Positions 53,609 to 64,000 of a stretch of 64,000 bases of DNA are shown here, in pieces. A program made the position numbers and the translations under genes. The stretch lies in assembly GCF_057098645.1 (NCBI RefSeq), contig NZ_CM169472.1, one strand, 5' to 3'. Under the pieces are notes generated by a model. The model was given only the letters and a program-made list of their open reading frames with translations, made no database searches and had not been told where the DNA came from. Position 1 is the stretch's first letter, and the number at the start of each line of letters is the position of its first letter.

Positions 53609-54255
53609 GAGAATGTTCCTCCGGATGTTGTTAAACCAGCCGGTGTGGTCATGAAAACAACGCACCACCTTCACCGGCATAACAACCGGGGAGAAACGTA
53701 AAAAATAATCGGGAATGTGACCGCCAGGAGATAAACGGGGAGGTTACGGTGGCTGAGCCGTACCGGTATGCCGGGTGGTTGTTACGAAACGATGCTTCCG
53801 CACGCGCGCGCGATAAAGAAGGGATGATTTTCGTGAGGAAGAGGGGAAAACTGGCGTTCTGATAATTGCAGAGTTATTTACGGGGCGGTTACGATGGGGC
53901 AGACCGTGTCCGGTGGGCAGGCGACAGGTATCACCGATGGGATAAGACTGTCTGATTGGTATTATAAATATATAAGAGAGAGCAAACACATGAGATCAAA
54001 TACATGAGTTCATATATGTGAAATAAACACGGTGAGTGTGATCAGTGGGCATGTGCAAAATGGCATCTGAATCGATCGCAGTTTGGCATTCGAATCGATC
54101 ATGATTTGGCATCCATCTCCGATCACAGTTTGGCATCACAATCGATCACGATTTGGCATGCTTCCGATCATTGATTGGCATCCTGCCAGTCACTCCGGGA
54201 ATTAACTCTTTTCACCACAGTCTCCATTGCCGTGTTTAAACCAGTGGAGACGTCA

Positions 54256-55821
54256 ATGTCCAGAAAGAGAAAATCCAGGAGCACTATGGAAACCTGTTTT
54301 AAGATCCTTCAGCTCAAGTTCGACAAGAAGCTGACTAACCGTTGTATCGGACTGACGTTACACATCAGCGCCTCAACCGTTTTTGAGGTTCTTGCCCGCT
54401 TCAAAGCCTCTTCTCTGTCATGGCCATTACCTGCTGATATATCCCATGACACGCTGGAGAAACTCATTTTTCCGCCCAAAGACACCTTTGCATCAGAGCT
54501 TGTAATGCCTGACATGTTGTACTTCGATACGGAAATGAGAAAACCAGGTGTGACGCGGCAACTGTTGTGGATGGAATACAAGGCACAGGCGGGTAACAAA
54601 GCGATGGGATACTCGCACTTCTGCCGTTGCTACCGGGAGTGGAAAAAAACGCGACGTCTCTCCATGCGCCAGGAGCATCGTGCCGGCGAAAAGCTTTTTA
54701 TCGACTTCTGTGGTCCTACGGTTCCTGTTATTAATCCGGACACCGGTGAGATACGCCGCGTGGCAATCTTCGTGGCCGTAATGGGGGCGTCCAACTATAC
54801 CTACGTTGAAGCGTGCGAAGGTCAGGACATGATGTCATGGTTAAATGCCCACAGCCGTTGCCTGACCTTCCTGGGCGGCGTACCGAAGCTGCTCATCCCC
54901 GATAACCTCAGAAGCGCAGTGAAAAAGGCCGATCGATATGAGCCTGTCATCAACGACAGTTATCAGGCACTGGCTGAGCACTATGGCACGGTTATCATCC
55001 CGGCCCGACCACGCAAACCTAAAGATAAACCAAAAGCAGAAAACGGCGTCCTCATCGTTGAACGATGGCTTCTTGCCCGCATCCGTAATGAAACCTTCCA
55101 CACGCTCAGGGCGCTGAATGCGCGCCTTAGGGAGTTACTGACAGACATGAATAACCGGCCAATGAAGGGGTACGGCAATCAAACCCGTGCAGAACGCTTC
55201 CGCATACTGGATGCGCCAGCACTCTCTCCGCTGCCTCTGGCACCTTATGAATACACGGAATACAAAGCTGTGAAGGTTGGCCCTGACTACCACGTTGAAT
55301 ATGCCCGTCACTGGTACTCCGTTCCACACGAACTGGTCGGTCAGCGTCTGTCACTGAAGGCGGGGCAGTCGGTGGTACAGCTCTGGCACAAGGGGCAGTG
55401 TGTGGCGCAACATCCGCGCAGCACACATGAATATAAACACACAACCAATCCGCTTCACATGCCAGAGCGCCACCGGCAGCACGGGACATGGACACCGGAA
55501 CGCCTGATCGAGCAGGGAAAACGTACGGGCCCGTCCACAGGCCGGGTGGTTGAATCCATGCTGAAGGCAAAACCCCATCCGGAACTGGCTTATCGTGCAG
55601 TTCTGGGGCTGCTGGCACTTCAGAAAAAATACGGCCCGGAACGGCTGGAAAAGGCCTGTTACGTTGCCCTGCACTATAACGCCCCTGACAGACGCTTTAT
55701 CGACAATCTGCTGCGTCACCATCGGGAGAACCTGGAGCTTCCATTATCCCGCCAGGGCGAACAACATCCGGCATATGCTTCAGAGCATGAAAACCTGCGT
55801 GGTCCGGGCTACTACCACTGA
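54256..55821 (+). CDS. istA: IS21-family transposase IstA
   Basis: 521 aa from MSRKRKSRSTMETCFKILQLKFDKKL...; HTH plus DDE domain. Confidence 0.8.
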   Translation: MSRKRKSRSTMETCFKILQLKFDKKLTNRCIGLTLHISASTVFEVLARFKASSLSWPLPADISHDTLEKLIFPPKDTFASELVMPDMLYFDTEMRKPGVTRQLLWMEYKAQAGNKAMGYSHFCRCYREWKKTRRLSMRQEHRAGEKLFIDFCGPTVPVINPDTGEIRRVAIFVAVMGASNYTYVEACEGQDMMSWLNAHSRCLTFLGGVPKLLIPDNLRSAVKKADRYEPVINDSYQALAEHYGTVIIPARPRKPKDKPKAENGVLIVERWLLARIRNETFHTLRALNARLRELLTDMNNRPMKGYGNQTRAERFRILDAPALSPLPLAPYEYTEYKAVKVGPDYHVEYARHWYSVPHELVGQRLSLKAGQSVVQLWHKGQCVAQHPRSTHEYKHTTNPLHMPERHRQHGTWTPERLIEQGKRTGPSTGRVVESMLKAKPHPELAYRAVLGLLALQKKYGPERLEKACYVALHYNAPDRRFIDNLLRHHRENLELPLSRQGEQHPAYASEHENLRGPGYYH

Positions 55822-55837
55822 CAGAAGGAACAACAGT

Positions 55838-56593
55838 ATGAGTGATAACCTGTTAAACAAACTGACCCAACTGAAACTCCCGGCGATGGCCGGGAGCCTG
55901 ATACGGCAGCGGGAAACGCCTCAGACCTACGACGAACTGTCGTTCGAGGAAAGGCTGACGCTGCTGGTTGATGACGAGCTTCTGAGCAGGGAAAACAGCC
56001 GTGTGGCACGGTTGAGAAAAAATGCCGGCCTGAAATACCAGGCAACACCGGAAGGGCTGCGCTATCCGGCCTCAAGAGGTCTGCGGGCTGAACAGATGAG
56101 AGAACTGCTGAACGGCCACTACATAACCCACAGGAAAAACCTGCTGATAACCGGTCCGACAGGATGTGGCAAGAGCTGGATAGCCAATGCGCTGGGCGAA
56201 CAGGCATGTCGACAGAAACACAGCGTCCGGTACTGTAGAACCGGGCGATTACTGGAACAACTGGCTCAGGGACGTGTTGATGGCAGCTGGCTGAAATATC
56301 TGAAACAGTTGCAAAAAATACAGGTTCTAATCCTGGACGATCTGGGGCTGGAACAGTTAAGTAACGCCCAGTGTAATGACCTTCTGGAGCTCATAGAGGA
56401 TCGTTACGGACAAAGCAGCACGATAGTGGTAAGCCAGTTCCCGGTAGATAAATGGCATGGTCTGATGGAGAACCCAACAACAGCAGATGCCATCCTGGAC
56501 AGACTGGTACATAACTCACACCGAGTGGTCCTTCAGGGAGAGTCACTGAGGAAAAATCCCCCGGTAGTGGAAAGCAGCGAAAAAACGCGTTAA
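55838..56593 (+). CDS. istB: IS21-family helper ATPase IstB
   Basis: MSDNLLNKLTQLKLPAMAG...; Walker A GPTGCGKS; AAA+ IstB-like. Confidence 0.85.
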   Translation: MSDNLLNKLTQLKLPAMAGSLIRQRETPQTYDELSFEERLTLLVDDELLSRENSRVARLRKNAGLKYQATPEGLRYPASRGLRAEQMRELLNGHYITHRKNLLITGPTGCGKSWIANALGEQACRQKHSVRYCRTGRLLEQLAQGRVDGSWLKYLKQLQKIQVLILDDLGLEQLSNAQCNDLLELIEDRYGQSSTIVVSQFPVDKWHGLMENPTTADAILDRLVHNSHRVVLQGESLRKNPPVVESSEKTR

Positions 56594-57568
56594 AAAGCGG
56601 TAGAAAAAGTTAAGTTCCCGGTTGATCGAATGGATGCGAATCGCTGATCGGACTTCGATGCCAATCCGTGATCGAATAGAGCGGAATACGCAGGCATGAT
56701 GAGAACGCAGTAGCAACAGACTGCGCTATCCCTGATAGCTGGCGTATAACCTGCGTATATAAAACGTACCAGCAACGCACGTGAACAGAGTGCATTAAGC
56801 ATCCGTCGTTGACACCGACCTGGTGAGTGACAGTCTGAGAGACCGGTTAAGTGGTGGTACGGGAGTAATGAGTTTGGGGAGGGTACCAGAATGTCAGTCT
56901 GGTACGGTATGCTGACAGTATCACGTTAATTGCAGCATAAAGTGATGAGAGGCTAATGGAAGTTAAAACCAGAGCAGTTCCGTCGTTGTTCATCCCGGGA
57001 GACACTGGAAAAAGTGATTTCCCACACGCGTTATAAGCTTACTCTAGCGGAGATGGAAGCCTTCAACTCTGCGGTCGATCACCGACTGGCAGAACTGACA
57101 ATGAACAAGCTTTACGATCGTGTTCCCGCTTCAGTCTGGAAATATGTCATCTGAGCGTTCGGTAATCACAACTGCATCGCGCCAGGTGTTATCCGCTTTG
57201 TGATTCTTATTGGCTCTTCTCAGGTTATTAAAAGCTGAATATGTTCCTGTTGTCGGGAACCAGGATAATACCGGGAACGTTAAGCGGTATAGCGACAACA
57301 AAGAATTCGAAATCAAAAGGGAATGGTGCCGGAGGCGTGGGCGGTAATGGGCTGATTTTCAGGTATTACCGGCTTACAGCGTGTGGTTGATATTGAGGGG
57401 CTGTGAGTTTCACGTATTTGTCAGAAACCCAGACGAGTTTTCCTGTATGAGACGAAATAAGGCAGCGGCAATACATGGAAAAATTTAATATGCTATGAAG
57501 GAGAACCTGTCGGTTACGCTTAATATAACCGGTACACTGTCAGCTCAGGGGATACATGAACCGTTATC

Positions 57569-57772
57569 TCACCAGCTACACAGTATATACACACTGACGC
57601 TGACAGTAGTCAGCAGGACCACAATAATCAGTGCCAGCAGTATGGTAACGATACGGTCTGTATTCCGGTAATAGCCGAAGGGGTCGACAGAACCACAATA
57701 CGGGCAACACACAGTATTATGAGTAATCGCGTTTCCACAGTCCCAGCACTTCTTTTTGCGTATCACCATCAC
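57569..57772 (-). CDS. Small zinc-ribbon membrane protein (hypothetical)
   Basis: 67 aa; CWDCG...CPYCG zinc ribbon followed by one hydrophobic helix (IVTILLALIIVVLLTTVSVSVYIL). Confidence 0.4.
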   Translation of the reverse strand: MMVIRKKKCWDCGNAITHNTVCCPYCGSVDPFGYYRNTDRIVTILLALIIVVLLTTVSVSVYILCSW

Positions 57773-57973
57773 TCCCTCCTCACAGCCTTACCCGTAACCG
57801 GTTTTTTACATTAAAAAAACAACGCTGAAAATTCAACCGTCAGTCCGGAGACGACCGTTCGGGTTATCTCAGAGTGCCTGAGATATTGCCTGGTTGGAGA
57901 TCACTTCAGGGACTCTGCGCATTTTTTACGGCGTGGTTAATCCGTATGAACGAAACCATACGGAGATTTAACC

Positions 57974-58543
57974 ATGACCTACAAATACAACCCCTTCTGG
58001 CAGCAACGTATTCGTGAGACGGTGCGGCACGCACTGGATGTTCATCCCCGCCTGACGGCATTGCGGGTTGATCTGCGTCTCCCGGATGTACCGGCAGCAA
58101 CGGACGCGGCTGTGATATCCCGCTTCATCAATGCCCTGAAAGCCCGAATCGACGCTTACCAGAAACGTAAGCATCGGGAAGGTAAACGCGTGCATTCCTC
58201 GACCCTGCATTACGCCTGGGCCCGGGAGTTCGGGGAGCTTAAAGGCAAAAAACACTATCACCTGCTGCTGCTGGTCAACCGGGATACCTGGTGTCGTGCC
58301 GGCGATTACCGCGCTCCGGGGTCACTGGCCGGAATGATTAAACAGGCCTGGTGCAGTGCCCTGGGGGTGGATGCCGGATGTTATGCCACGCTGGTGCATT
58401 TTCCGGTCAGGCCGGCGGTGTGGCTGGAACGCGATGATGAAACCGGCTTTCAGCAGGTACTGGAACGTGCTGGCTATCTGGCGAAGGAGCATACCAAAGC
58501 TCGCGGCACCGGTGAGCGCAACTTTGGCTGTAGCCGGAGTTGA
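57974..58543 (+). CDS. YagK/YfjJ (inovirus Gp2-like) family protein
   Basis: 189 aa; N-terminal MTYKYNPFWQQRIRETVRHALDVHPRLTALRVDLRLP resembles the YagK/YfjJ family found in CP4-type islands (from memory); Shine-Dalgarno present. Confidence 0.5.
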   Translation: MTYKYNPFWQQRIRETVRHALDVHPRLTALRVDLRLPDVPAATDAAVISRFINALKARIDAYQKRKHREGKRVHSSTLHYAWAREFGELKGKKHYHLLLLVNRDTWCRAGDYRAPGSLAGMIKQAWCSALGVDAGCYATLVHFPVRPAVWLERDDETGFQQVLERAGYLAKEHTKARGTGERNFGCSRS

Positions 58544-58795
58544 ACACGACAGACGCGCCAATACCCGGCAAACCAAAAGTATGGGTTGTTGTCTGGTGGC
58601 AACGATGTATCCACTCGCCCACTGACTGTTTTTTACGTCAGTGTTCCATTGTGTGACAACCACAATGCTGTAACAGCAACCAGCCTGCTTTACCCAAACT
58701 CCAGTCCAGATTTTAACTGAACCGCCATTCACACCTGACCACGCTGCCCGTACCGGGACGGCTGTTGCCTGCGTGTCGTCTGGCGGCTGAGGAAT

Positions 58796-59203
58796 ATGAC
58801 TATGTACGCAAAATCCTTTCTCGCACTTGATGGCAACGGGCGTCTGACGGGTGCCCGTACCGCACAGACTGCACCTTACGATCGCTACACTTGCCACCTT
58901 TGCGGCAGTGCACTCAGATACCACCCGCAATACGACACTGAGCGTCCCTGGTTTGAACACACTGACGACGGGCTGACAGCGCACGGTCAGCAGTGTCCTT
59001 ATGTCAGACCGGAACGCAGGGAGATACGCTTGATTAAGCGTCTGCAGCAATTCGTACCGGATGCCTTACCCGTGGTGCGTAAAGCCAGCTGGCACTGCAG
59101 ACAATGTCACCACGATTATTATGGGGAGCAGTACTGCACAAACTGCCAGACCGGAGGATTCAGTATTCCCCGGACAACTCGGGAGGAAATATGCGAATTC
59201 TGA
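58796..59203 (+). CDS. Cys-rich putative zinc-binding protein, paralog A
   Basis: 135 aa; CHLCG...PWFEH and WHCRQCHHDYYGEQYCTNCQTGG motifs; GAGGA Shine-Dalgarno. Confidence 0.55.
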   Translation: MTMYAKSFLALDGNGRLTGARTAQTAPYDRYTCHLCGSALRYHPQYDTERPWFEHTDDGLTAHGQQCPYVRPERREIRLIKRLQQFVPDALPVVRKASWHCRQCHHDYYGEQYCTNCQTGGFSIPRTTREEICEF

Positions 59204-59625
59204 ACTGTTATATGGCGAATGACAGCAAGGGGCATTTTGTTACGGCGAAAGAAGCAGCGAAGCACAACCGCCGGGACGTTTTGTGCTGTGTGTCCTGTGG
59301 ATGCCCGTTAACACTTCAGCGGGGCAATGACGGACAACAACCGTGGTTTGAACATGACCAGATGACTGTCGCTGAGAAAATCCTGCTGCGATGCACCTGG
59401 CTTGACCCGGCAGAGAAAGAGGCCCGTCGTTTGCATCTGCAGGGTATGACAGTTCTGGATTATACGGTGAAGGTGAGAAAGTGGTTTTGTGTGATGTGTG
59501 ACGAAGATTATGAAGGAGAAAAGTGCTGCCCGCGTTGTGGTACCGGGGTATACAGCAGGGCGTGGGGGCGGCAGGATGTGCCGTCGGAAGATGCCAGGGC
59601 TGATAATCCGTTACAGAGGTTGTAA
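59191..59625 (+). CDS. Cys-rich putative zinc-binding protein, paralog B (translationally coupled to A)
   Basis: 144 aa from ATG 59191 (GGGAGG Shine-Dalgarno); shares CxxCG...PWFEH and W.C..C.(D/H)DY.GE..C..C.TG motifs with paralog A; 13-nt overlap with A. Confidence 0.55.
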   Translation: MRILNCYMANDSKGHFVTAKEAAKHNRRDVLCCVSCGCPLTLQRGNDGQQPWFEHDQMTVAEKILLRCTWLDPAEKEARRLHLQGMTVLDYTVKVRKWFCVMCDEDYEGEKCCPRCGTGVYSRAWGRQDVPSEDARADNPLQRL

Positions 59626-61012
59626 TGGTTGCCTCTGGCGCAGTTTGCGGTGATGCCGTTCCCGGGAATGGATTGCCAGTGCGGGGACTGTGGAGCTTAA
59701 TTCCGGTGTTGGTGGCCTTTCCGTTGATTTTGAGCCAACAGCCCTCCTGTGACTGACAGGCTGCCTCGTCATTCCATACGTATCTTCAGGTGAACAGATG
59801 CATGTCTGAGCGTACTCACGCAGCCGGCCCGGCAACCGCGGTGGTACTACGCTGGCTGCGAGAAAATACAGAAAGCACCAGAATACGCTCTCCTGTTGCT
59901 GATCAATCAGGATCTCATGCACCTACCGGGATCTAGGGCTAGAACTGATGAAACCGATTCGCACCTGGCTGAGTTAATGCTACAGGCCAGGGCATCACTA
60001 CCCCCTGACGAGCACTGTACTGTGGTATGCAGTTACAGGGGGCGTGTGCAGCCACACCTGAAAGCAGTGAGTCGTTCACGGCATTCAAAAACACGTGCCT
60101 TTCGTTCGCCGTTCCTGTGATGGCCGGCATCATTTGCTAAGCCGTTACCGACGTTATTCCCTCCGGGACACGCCTCTGGTTGAGGCTTTGCCCGGAGCAA
60201 TCGAATGAAAATAAGTTAAGTCACCGAAAGGGAGGATGTAGTCAACCGGGGGAACAGTAATAAGCCGTCGTGCTTTTATCGTACAAGTGTGTTGCGTTTT
60301 GCACCGAAAATACGATAGAGGTCGTTTATGGATTCCGCAGGGAGTGCTGATTATTATTCACTGGCAGCAGACAGCGATGTGTGTGCAGGCATTCAGGGGG
60401 ATGTTGTCAGCAGAAGGGTGCGTATAGCAGATTGTTGTTATACATGGCGTATGAAGTATTACCAGTCATGCGGAGTAGTGTGGTGAGGGGCTGTATGAGA
60501 AATCGCCACCTTCTTGTCAGAGAGGGAACGCTACCATGAAAGTCAAAAGCGATAACGCAGACCGGTACGATCGGTAGGTAAAACTGTAGCGGTGTGCTGC
60601 CGCCGAGGTCAGAATAATCTGCGCGTTTTTACGCCAGCGCCACCGACGAACAGCAGGAGATTGAGGGGAATTTGGCGGCGATAAAGACGTAGAAGAGAAA
60701 AACGGGCAATTTGCCGCATGCCCACAGAATCAGTGAGATCGTTAGCGACAGCAAAATGATCGGCAGCCAGCGGCGGCCTGCAATATCGGGATGAAGGAGA
60801 TCCTACGATATCGATGCTGCACCTGATATGTACGATCAGTAAATAGAGTACGAAACAGCAAACACGACGATAATAACGCTGGCAGCGGTGCCTGTCAGGC
60901 AAACGCCCACACGCAATAAAATAAATCAACCATCGCAGGGCCGTGATCATCCGCATACACCGCTGATGACGCGTCTAAAAACGCGTCAATATGACTTCCC
61001 CGGAACATTACC

Positions 61013-62254
61013 TCATTTCAGGGTATGGAGAATTTTTAACATCGAGTTATCTATGGTCTGTTTGACTTTTTCGTAATAGATCGGTTCAGATAATGACGAA
61101 TCCCAGGTATGAATATCGTTCTTATTAAAAGGAATGCATTTCATGGCTACTGCCTTTAACTGTTTCCCTTTTTGCTCATACTCATTGATATCATTAATGG
61201 TAAATTTCAAACTCTCTTTTCTTGCTTCTGTTATTTCAGTTGGGCATACCAGCTTTATATCTCCTAAGGTAAATGTACTGACCCCGGTGATGAAAAATCT
61301 CTCGGGGATTTCTGTATAGTGCCGAGTATTCCAGATTAAGCCATTAAACATACTATGAGAATGAGTTTTATTTTCGATATAATACTGATGCGTTCTCCAG
61401 TCACTAATGCCTGAGAGACTCATTACCATATTAATGATCATATTTGGGATAGGGCGATACCACATACTGAATACAGTAATTACAACTGGTATGCATATTA
61501 AAACAACTATGAATCCAGTGAATTTATCACCATTTCTGCGCTCATTAAGATGTATGGCACCAGGCAGAATGCCAATAGTAACAATAGCTGCTGTTAAGGC
61601 AAGGAGCATTAGCATTTCAACCAAATCACTTGTCTCCTCACTAAAATCAAGTTGGGTAAGCAGAAATAACATAGGTAATATTTGAACGATCCCGGGAGTC
61701 ATAAATTGCAAGGGTAAAAAACATAACAATCCTGGTTTTCTTGGTAATTTCTCATAGTTATCAGATTTATGCCAACTAAATCTCTTTGTTTTAAATAGAT
61801 TAAAATAGGATACAAAATAACTAAAAGCAAGCATCAATACAAAACCGGTGATACTTATGGAATAACCATTCCATCCATAAAGATAGTAAATATAGTAGCC
61901 AACAATTATACTACAGCATATAAACAAGCTATTTAGATAACAAACAGTGGAAATTCGATGTGGTATGCTTGGATAATTTTTGAAATTATCTTCATGTAAT
62001 GTGTAAATGAGGATTAGAATAAAAGAGGAAATGAAAATTACTAAGCTAAACCCAGAAAACGATACTATTATAAAAACAAAAATGATACCTATGGCTGAAC
62101 TGAGGCTTACAGTATCAAAGAAAATATCTAATCTATCTATGTTTGACAGATAGAACCATATAACAGCCATTGTGCATCCAGTAATAAATGTAGATGAGGT
62201 TATTACTGAAATAATGAATTTTTTATTCAACAGCTTTATGACAGATTTATTCAT
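61013..62254 (-). CDS. AT-rich polytopic membrane protein with C-terminal soluble domain (unknown function)
   Basis: 413 aa; multiple predicted transmembrane helices in the N-terminal roughly 270 aa, hydrophilic C-terminus; codon usage and base composition visibly AT-rich compared with flanking DNA. Confidence 0.6.
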   Translation of the reverse strand: MNKSVIKLLNKKFIISVITSSTFITGCTMAVIWFYLSNIDRLDIFFDTVSLSSAIGIIFVFIIVSFSGFSLVIFISSFILILIYTLHEDNFKNYPSIPHRISTVCYLNSLFICCSIIVGYYIYYLYGWNGYSISITGFVLMLAFSYFVSYFNLFKTKRFSWHKSDNYEKLPRKPGLLCFLPLQFMTPGIVQILPMLFLLTQLDFSEETSDLVEMLMLLALTAAIVTIGILPGAIHLNERRNGDKFTGFIVVLICIPVVITVFSMWYRPIPNMIINMVMSLSGISDWRTHQYYIENKTHSHSMFNGLIWNTRHYTEIPERFFITGVSTFTLGDIKLVCPTEITEARKESLKFTINDINEYEQKGKQLKAVAMKCIPFNKNDIHTWDSSLSEPIYYEKVKQTIDNSMLKILHTLK

Positions 62255-62884
62255 AATCCGAATTCCATACCTGATAAAATTCGTATTGTAGTGAGGACCG
62301 ATTTTTTGAGCAACTTATAACCATCGCTTAAAGCTACTTGCTACCATACATGCCGTTATCCCGAACCATAAAGCGCTTGGCAGTAACACCAACATCACAG
62401 ACAGATACTGCGGTTGCGCCAAATAAAAGAATGGCGGATAAGGTCGGCGGATTGCAACGTGATGCTGTGCTGTAGGATGACTTCTGCGGTCTCGTCCAGC
62501 GCCAGCCACTCCTGGCGGATTTTGTGTGGGGGCATGGTGTGTTCCTTTTTGTGTTGTTGGTTGCGTATAGTGCTTGTTGATGATGAAAACCGGTGTGAGA
62601 TATTTTTGCCAAAACAACTAACACTGATCAGTGTAGGTAACGAGCTTTTCAGACATAATATGGTGATGATTTACACTGGAAAAACAGGACGTAACACTGA
62701 ATAGCTCTGGAGACGATTTGCTTGAAGTGGCGTGCTATTTGTTGAAAGAAGAATTTCTGATGATACCTTATTTTAAAGGAGGCTAAAGGGAGAGGAGAGA
62801 GCCCTGTTGAAATCAACAGGACTTAATAGCTCCTCTCCGAAGGGCAAGGAGATCACCCGTGCGCCTGGTTAGGTGAAGAAGTAC

Positions 62885-64000
62885 TCAGCGTGGTTGCAGA
62901 CAGTTATCTTCTTTCCAGCCGTACAGCCACTCCATGCCGCGATAAAACTCTGCCTGCGATTTCCCTTTCCACAGCAGGTTACGAACCTGGCGTTCTACTC
63001 CCGCGGCGTGATAAACCCGTCCCATCTCACGGGTCGACCAGACAATACGCGCGGTGCGCGGAATACGTACCGACTCATACAGCGCAAAGGCTTGCGCCGC
63101 ATCACCCTCACACTGCGCCAGCGCCTTACCCAGCGTTACCGCGTCTTCCAGCGCCATACAGGCACCTTGCGCCATATATTGCGCCACTGGATGGGCTGCA
63201 TCGCCCACCAGCGTAATGCGGTTAGTGCCCCATTTCGCGACTGGTTCACGGTCGGCAGTTGACCAGCGTCGCCATGAAGTCGGTTTATCCAGCATCTGGC
63301 GCGGACGCGGGTGAATCCCCTCAAAGTAAGAGAGCACTTCCTCTTTACTGCCATCCTTCACGCCCCACTCTTCCTGCTGGCGGCTGTGGAATGTCACCAC
63401 CAGGTTATACTGCGTGCCGCCGCGCAAAGGGTAATGCACCAGGTGACAGTGCGGCCCCGCCCACAGTACCGGTGCGTTAATGCGCAAATCTTCCGGCATA
63501 TCGGCACAATCGATAACCGCACGGTAGACAACATGTCCGGTGACACGCGGCGCATCGCCCAATAAGCTCTGGCGCACCACTGACTTCACGCCGTCACAGC
63601 CAATCAGAATATCGCCGGTCCAGCTATTGCCGCGATCGTCAAACACGGTGACATCGTCTTCCGTCTCGCGAATATCCACGACGTTGGTGGAGGTGTGATA
63701 TTCCACGTCCGGATGCGTCAGTACCGCTTCCCACACCGAGGCGTGAATATCAACCCGGTGGATCACCGCGTAAGGACCGCCGAAATGGTCACGAAAGGCC
63801 TGCCCGGTTTCAATGCGCACCACTTCTTCGGCGTTCACCGCATCCATCATGGTAATGTGATCGGTAAACACCGCGCGCTGGCGGGCAACTTCGCCGACGC
63901 CGAGGCTGTCCAGCGCCGAAAACGCATTTGGCCCCAACTGGATGCCCGCGCCAATCTCACCGATCTCATGCGCCTTTTCCAGCAGCACCACTTTGATCCC
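62885..64000 (-). CDS. FAD-dependent aromatic-ring monooxygenase (salicylate/3-hydroxybenzoate hydroxylase-like), N-terminus beyond window end
   Basis: ORF runs to the window edge; ...VLLEKAHEIGEIGAGIQLGPNAFSALDSLGV... and C-terminal GDAAHPVAQYMAQGACMALEDA motifs typical of group A flavin monooxygenases. Confidence 0.7.
   Translation of the reverse strand, partial: GIKVVLLEKAHEIGEIGAGIQLGPNAFSALDSLGVGEVARQRAVFTDHITMMDAVNAEEVVRIETGQAFRDHFGGPYAVIHRVDIHASVWEAVLTHPDVEYHTSTNVVDIRETEDDVTVFDDRGNSWTGDILIGCDGVKSVVRQSLLGDAPRVTGHVVYRAVIDCADMPEDLRINAPVLWAGPHCHLVHYPLRGGTQYNLVVTFHSRQQEEWGVKDGSKEEVLSYFEGIHPRPRQMLDKPTSWRRWSTADREPVAKWGTNRITLVGDAAHPVAQYMAQGACMALEDAVTLGKALAQCEGDAAQAFALYESVRIPRTARIVWSTREMGRVYHAAGVERQVRNLLWKGKSQAEFYRGMEWLYGWKEDNCLQPR

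Follow-up and report, generated by a model that had tools for sequence, protein, structure and literature searches.

The closest described counterparts of the locus analysed here are the Escherichia coli genomic islands of the CP4-57/CP4-6 type that carry a YagK/YfjJ module, and we take the upstream module of our locus to be akin to that of the K-12 prophages CP4-57 and CP4-6. Other known systems bear on its individual parts. Of the protein family designated PF27752, or "UCP030791 family putative phage-derived protein," the protein database contains 306 members, all tagged PF27752, most of them 165-190 aa long and nearly all from Escherichia; an intact member was not recognised by Pfam, NCBIfam or PHROGs searches, and a literature search found no paper under the name UCP030791. 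The intact module, as seen at 96-5700 of contig L019 and also in L020-L022, consists of DUF7828, DUF7828/Zn_ribbon_11 and PF27752 genes, followed by genes for a 200-aa protein, a 733-aa SF1-helicase/ankyrin protein and an Rpn (Transposase_31) nuclease. Among insertion sequences (ISs), a complete IS66-family copy in a plasmid locus (L012) comprises tnpA, tnpB, tnpC and about 360 bp, then a right end of the type described below; it is bounded by the left repeat (IRL) GTAATGTTCCGGGGACCTCAT and the right repeat (IRR) GTAATATTCCGGCGAACTCAT, with an 8-bp target duplication, GGAAGAAG. Finally, Klebsiella plasmids carry genes annotated as "aromatic amino acid transport family protein" or "tyrosine permease," next to genes for an aminotransferase, an alpha-glucosidase and an MFS transporter.

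We analysed a window of E. coli DNA (the whole stretch of 64,000 nucleotides) whose only tRNA gene, tRNA-Phe at 38585-38660, has a genomic island downstream of it. Upstream of the interval of interest, all on the plus strand, are a YfjI-family gene, an Hha-like gene, a YagK/YfjJ gene (YagK_YfjJ_C, PF11726; "inovirus Gp2 family") and two DUF7828/Zn_ribbon_11 genes, a set similar to that of the CP4-57/CP4-6-type islands, from which the window differs in carrying a 3-hydroxybenzoate/gentisate catabolic cluster downstream. This cluster is on the minus strand, together with a small ORF and an AT-rich gene for a 413-aa membrane protein. The second zinc-ribbon gene (plus strand) ends at 59625 and the AT-rich gene (minus strand) at 61013, leaving between them a gap, 59626-61012. 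The two flanking genes converge on the gap, and therefore the promoter of neither lies inside it. The AT-rich protein had no Pfam, NCBIfam or PHROGs match; its homologs in Serratia, Enterobacter, Leclercia and Salmonella measure 413-414 aa, and for this reason the start that PGAP assigns to the gene in E. coli, giving 385 aa, is probably 28 codons too short. Elsewhere in the window, a strong hairpin at 62789-62838, about 47 bp beyond the stop of the 3-hydroxybenzoate 6-monooxygenase gene, could act as a transcription terminator; its match to the Rfam family mir-5470 is a chance one (E 0.42, 23 bits versus a gathering score of 98). Two overlapping ORFs at 54175-56593, which judging from their translations we presume to be an IS21-type istA/istB pair, occupy a site where related genomes (L001) have an IS3-family element instead.

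Our reading of the gap, which we hold to be very probably correct, is that it is made of remnants patched together in a variable part of the island and has no function. It resolves into the following features, listed with the AT-rich gene that borders it and with the evidence for each.

59626-59784, plus strand: spacer after the second DUF7828/zinc-ribbon gene (megablast; colinearity with L019, L002 and L009)
59781-60140, plus strand: PF27752/UCP030791 family pseudogene, codons 55-173 (homology to intact members)
60141-60187, plus strand: 3' flank of the UCP030791 remnant (aligned to L015 by blastn as far as 60187)
60188-60424, strand not applicable: orphan DNA, confined to genomes carrying a window-type gap
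60425-60502, strand not applicable: short segment of a right-hand block (blastn query 246-336; L016)
60503-60901, minus strand: fragment of a Trp_Tyr_perm aromatic amino acid permease gene, codons 62-197 of 386 (DNA alignment and tblastn)
60609-60956, minus strand: probable chance chimeric ORF of 115 aa (113 aa in PGAP, WP_001326345.1; ORF list and frame analysis)
60904-61011, plus strand: solitary right end (IRR plus about 100 bp inside it) of an IS66-family insertion sequence (similarity to the complete copy in L012)
61013-62254, minus strand: AT-rich gene, 413 aa, about 30-38% GC

The first-pass annotation, made from the window alone, had described about 1.4 kb without a convincing ORF, and the ORF content agrees: the longest ORF on either strand is the 115-aa one, and when the gap was shuffled 500 times, the longest ORF averaged 102 aa (sd 27). 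As 27% of the shuffles reach 115 aa, the ORF content is at chance level. The gap is also the longest run without an ORF of at least 150 aa in the 64-kb window; the second and third longest such runs are 56594-57973 (1380 bp) and 40121-41279 (1159 bp). We found the gap at full length in 63 complete E. coli genomes, O145:H28, O103:H2 and ML35 among them, at 99.4-100% identity. Because all full carriers are at least 99.4% identical, conservation of the gap is uninformative on selection, either way. About three quarters of it could be identified by homology, the remaining ~315 bp being 60188-60502. In the RefSeq records inspected, the three gap remnants (permease, IS66 and UCP030791) are nowhere marked as pseudogenes or IS fragments.

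The same annotation had noticed hydrophobic minus-strand stretches around 60600-60960 and likened them to a degraded membrane-protein gene, a suspicion that the homology bears out. Positions 60508-60888 share 84-87% DNA identity with the Klebsiella plasmid permease genes, and over the same positions the remnant is 86% identical in DNA to the gene for the 386-aa protein WP_041165489.1 on Klebsiella variicola plasmid pKP187, with a tblastn match over codons 62-197 (E 2e-31). WP_041165489.1 itself matches PF03222 at E 4.6e-81, and TIGR00837 at E 4e-82, yet in the latter case with 276.6 bits versus a curated cutoff of 350 bits. Judging from these alignments, the hydrophobic stretches are an internal piece of a Trp_Tyr_perm (PF03222) permease gene. 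The piece carries five indels (-1, -5, -1, -3 and +1) and a nonsense codon, TGG to TAG, at about 60803-60805; both ends of the gene are gone, leaving its middle third, and there is no complete ORF of about 385-415 aa encoding all membrane helices. The aminotransferase, alpha-glucosidase and MFS transporter genes that neighbour the permease gene in Klebsiella are absent, and comparing them with the gap gave no trace.

Beyond the permease remnant, and beyond anything in the first-pass annotation, the gap ends in the scar of an insertion sequence. Its last ~108-125 bp have 75-81% identity to a repeat found in 827 genomes, where it usually adjoins IS66-family transposase genes, and ~108 bp align to the right end of the L012 copy, an IS66-family element with ends GTAATGTTCCGGGG... 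The minus strand of 60991-61011 reads GTAATGTTCCGGGGAAGTCAT, a terminal inverted repeat starting with GTAA; these terminal 21 nt show no mismatch to the consensus pattern of both L012 ends, where no such match is expected by chance. At its outer end (...GGAACATTAC) the scar comes within 1 bp of the AT-rich gene's stop codon; that gene has the full family length of 413 aa and is therefore not truncated by the scar. Unlike the L012 copy, with its two ends and 8-bp duplication, the window has one end without tnp genes: we found no second IS66 end, and thus no left repeat, in the 64 kb, and no tnpA-, tnpB- or tnpC-type ORF in the gap among the ORFs of both strands. On its inner side the scar abuts permease DNA at about 60901-60904, and this junction is therefore an internal deletion joint and not an insertion site.

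Whole IS66 elements interrupt the gap in relatives. In L003 one sits at 60131-60139, flanked by a 9-nt alignment overlap that is consistent with the 8-bp target duplication of the family, and in L004 and L018 one lies at 60335, with different DNA beyond. Such insertions would point to a dispensable region. The type of IS66 element at L005 (3600-4109), L008 (3660-4127) and L012 (3751-4109) has an unusual tail of ~360-510 bp after tnpC, made of one or two tandem units of ~150 bp and a minus-strand ORF of ~107-115 aa; in L008 the tail is inverted against the 3' end of tnpC. The tail ORF of the L012 copy had no Pfam match.

The 115-aa ORF at 60609-60956 spans both of these remnants. PGAP annotates it as a "hypothetical protein," WP_001326345.1, in at least two related genomes, RM9154-C1 and that of the related locus L016 (positions 2484-2825 of L006 and 3685-4026 of L016), and its product has hydrophobic stretches, as would be expected if a real small membrane protein of 113-115 aa had newly formed from IS and permease debris. 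We consider this very unlikely. The ORF is as long as those that shuffled sequence gives; it starts inside the IS66 remnant and then crosses the permease remnant, in frame for part of the way and, between the -5 and the second -1 indels, out of frame; it had no Pfam match; and the sole minus-strand promoter-like site of the gap (60898-60870) lies downstream of its start codon. Moreover, most RefSeq records among the matches listed have nothing annotated in the gap, this ORF being the exception. WP_001326345.1 is thus probably a mis-annotation of a chance ORF.

The left part of the gap begins with common DNA. Positions 59626-59797 (query 1-172) were found by megablast at ~94% identity in ~2000 E. 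coli genomes, always directly 3' of the second zinc-ribbon gene and with variable DNA beyond. What follows in the window is a plus-strand remnant, likewise beyond the first-pass annotation, of a PF27752/UCP030791 gene. Starting from a weak similarity (68%) of 60005-60145 to another island type, a relaxed search led to E. coli 23CRST013, in which an intact UCP030791 gene of 169 aa (L015:4637-5146, WP_077896017.1) lies over DNA homologous to the gap, with 78.6% identity to 59839-60187. In tblastn, codons 51-87, 88-136 and 137-168 of WP_077896017.1 align in alternating frames to 59781-60134, and the intact protein matches the window in two frames at E 2e-17 and 1e-13; a family profile built from 108 members matches two reading frames of the remnant as well (per-sequence E 6e-17 and 2.6e-10). 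After repair of the frame, the translation of the remnant is 56% identical to the family member P0006 (E 6e-49). The gene for P0006 is found directly after two DUF7828/Zn_ribbon_11 genes in four independent contigs, L019-L022, and the remnant sits in the same position after its zinc-ribbon pair; the window therefore keeps the ancestral gene order. The Rpn nuclease and the 200-aa and 733-aa proteins that follow at the intact loci are absent from the gap, where comparison with these L015/L019 neighbour genes gave no trace.

Alignment with the intact L019 DNA shows how the gene was damaged. The window lacks 254 bp, in which the intact locus has the remainder of the spacer, a GTG start and codons 1-54; this deletion falls between short repeats, CATT..GTATC, with its junction at 59780-59784 (microhomology GTATC). 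In the remaining codons one base has been inserted near 59891 (+1 frameshift) and one lost near 60040 (-1 frameshift), and the gene still ends in its original stop codon, at 60138-60140. With the start and codons 1-54 deleted, the reading frame shifted twice and no intact ORF of about 165-190 aa, 59781-60140 is by its alignments a pseudogene and not a functional member of the PF27752/UCP030791 family. The 3' flank that follows partly contains an imperfect hairpin, with arms at 60161-60176 and 60182-60197. In the common module of ~2000 genomes (L009, 4171-4500; L013, 4642-5157) the PF27752 gene has also decayed, by a different route: it has a stop at codon 2 (GTG TAA), and the C-terminal block alone is left. 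Comparison of the loci suggests that the gene may have been lost repeatedly and independently.

Two other assignments for this part of the gap were rejected. The ATG at 59625, overlapping the zinc-ribbon stop as TAATG, was considered as the UCP030791 start, with the conserved 172 bp as the N-terminus, and a profile alignment seemed to agree; the DNA alignment with L019 showed that those bases are spacer and that 254 bp are deleted. A remnant of acetolactate synthase, considered in view of ilvN-like pseudogenes nearby in other genomes, had no Pfam support and was superseded by the UCP030791 result.

Between the UCP030791 and permease remnants lies the DNA that homology did not identify. Outside the gap carriers, 60188-60502 gave only one weak DNA match besides the part shared with the L016 type, 60425-60502. 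It had no Pfam match, a phage collection likewise returned none, and a search of 5.8 billion proteins with the concatenated six-frame fragments of 60141-60520 yielded nothing at E up to 1. From 60425 rightward, the window shares 98.9% with genomes that have a truncated cbtA toxin gene to the left, together with the DUF5983, DUF957 and DUF4942 genes of another island end. The shared block comprises the permease remnant, the IS66 scar, the AT-rich gene and the 3-hydroxybenzoate cluster, so that at junction 60425 one right-hand block is joined to two unrelated left contexts, orphan DNA in the window and truncated cbtA in L016. A "CbtA toxin" label on one match is incidental, since only 7 bp of that match overlap the truncated gene.

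A long non-coding stretch could also hold a small RNA or sequences that regulate the neighbouring genes in cis, as the first-pass annotation had offered as an alternative, and a ~150-bp block, 60005-60160, is shared at 68% identity with another island type. This block is the 3' end of the UCP030791 coding sequence; considered as a structured RNA or as a small ORF of 37 aa, it was rejected, with no fold signal. DNA-pattern scans for the conserved block in species-representative genomes gave no match, and then a single chance one (Paenibacillus). Fold energies gave no signal relative to shuffles, with z of -0.42 and -0.53 for 59995-60165 and of +0.72 and +0.53 for 60188-60507. The Rfam scan that had been proposed as a check came back blank: up to E 1, Rfam 15 matched nothing in the gap, and over 56500-64000 the single match was the chance miRNA model at 62789-62838. 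A consensus scan found one promoter-like and three terminator-like sites in the gap versus 2.4 and 1.6 expected from shuffles, so that neither kind of site is in excess over the shuffle level. With both neighbours transcribed toward the gap from promoters elsewhere, and with IS66 elements interrupting the region in relatives, we regard a small RNA or regulatory region as most improbable. Of the initial reading as "gene remnants or non-coding element," the remnants thus stand, homology searches having found those of the permease (tblastn) and UCP030791 (blastn and tblastn) genes, and the small RNA or regulatory alternative is left without support from gene orientation, Rfam, folding or site counts.

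That the orphan 315 bp (60188-60502) or the chimeric 113-115 aa ORF might be expressed with an acquired function seems to us exceedingly unlikely; if true, gene debris would here have given rise to a small RNA or a small membrane protein. We give next to no credence to expression of the UCP030791 remnant itself through a non-standard start and programmed frameshifting. In its favour, the +1 and -1 shifts together return the reading to the original frame, and the original stop codon survives; against it, the start codon, the upstream spacer and codons 1-54 are deleted, stop codons stand in the original frame between the two shifts, and the truncated form is absent among the 306 homologs, most of them of 165-190 aa.

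We therefore return to the patchwork of remnants. The segments of the gap differ in their distribution, the first 172 bp occurring in ~2000 genomes, the whole gap in 63, and the DNA from 60425 onward also with another left context; because of these differences we regard the gap as a mosaic. The homologies, the deletion, the frameshifts and the positions of the junctions are read directly from the alignments. As to the order of events, we infer that recombination between the short direct repeats would have deleted 254 bp, with the start and codons 1-54 of the UCP030791 gene, and that the two frameshifts would have broken the rest of the gene later. Illegitimate recombination, IS insertion and IS-associated deletion may in succession have brought the pieces together. 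From its sequence, the gap would now have no role other than to keep two convergent genes apart.

The gap carries little biological weight: decayed genes, IS scars and mosaic junctions are what one expects to find in the variable parts of E. coli genomic islands. The practical value of the finding is in annotation, with remnants that stand unmarked and a probable chance ORF, WP_001326345.1, called a protein in at least two records. In addition, the mosaic boundaries at 59780-59784, ~60188, 60425, ~60503 and ~60902 could serve to mark how the island and its 3-hydroxybenzoate/gentisate cluster were assembled.
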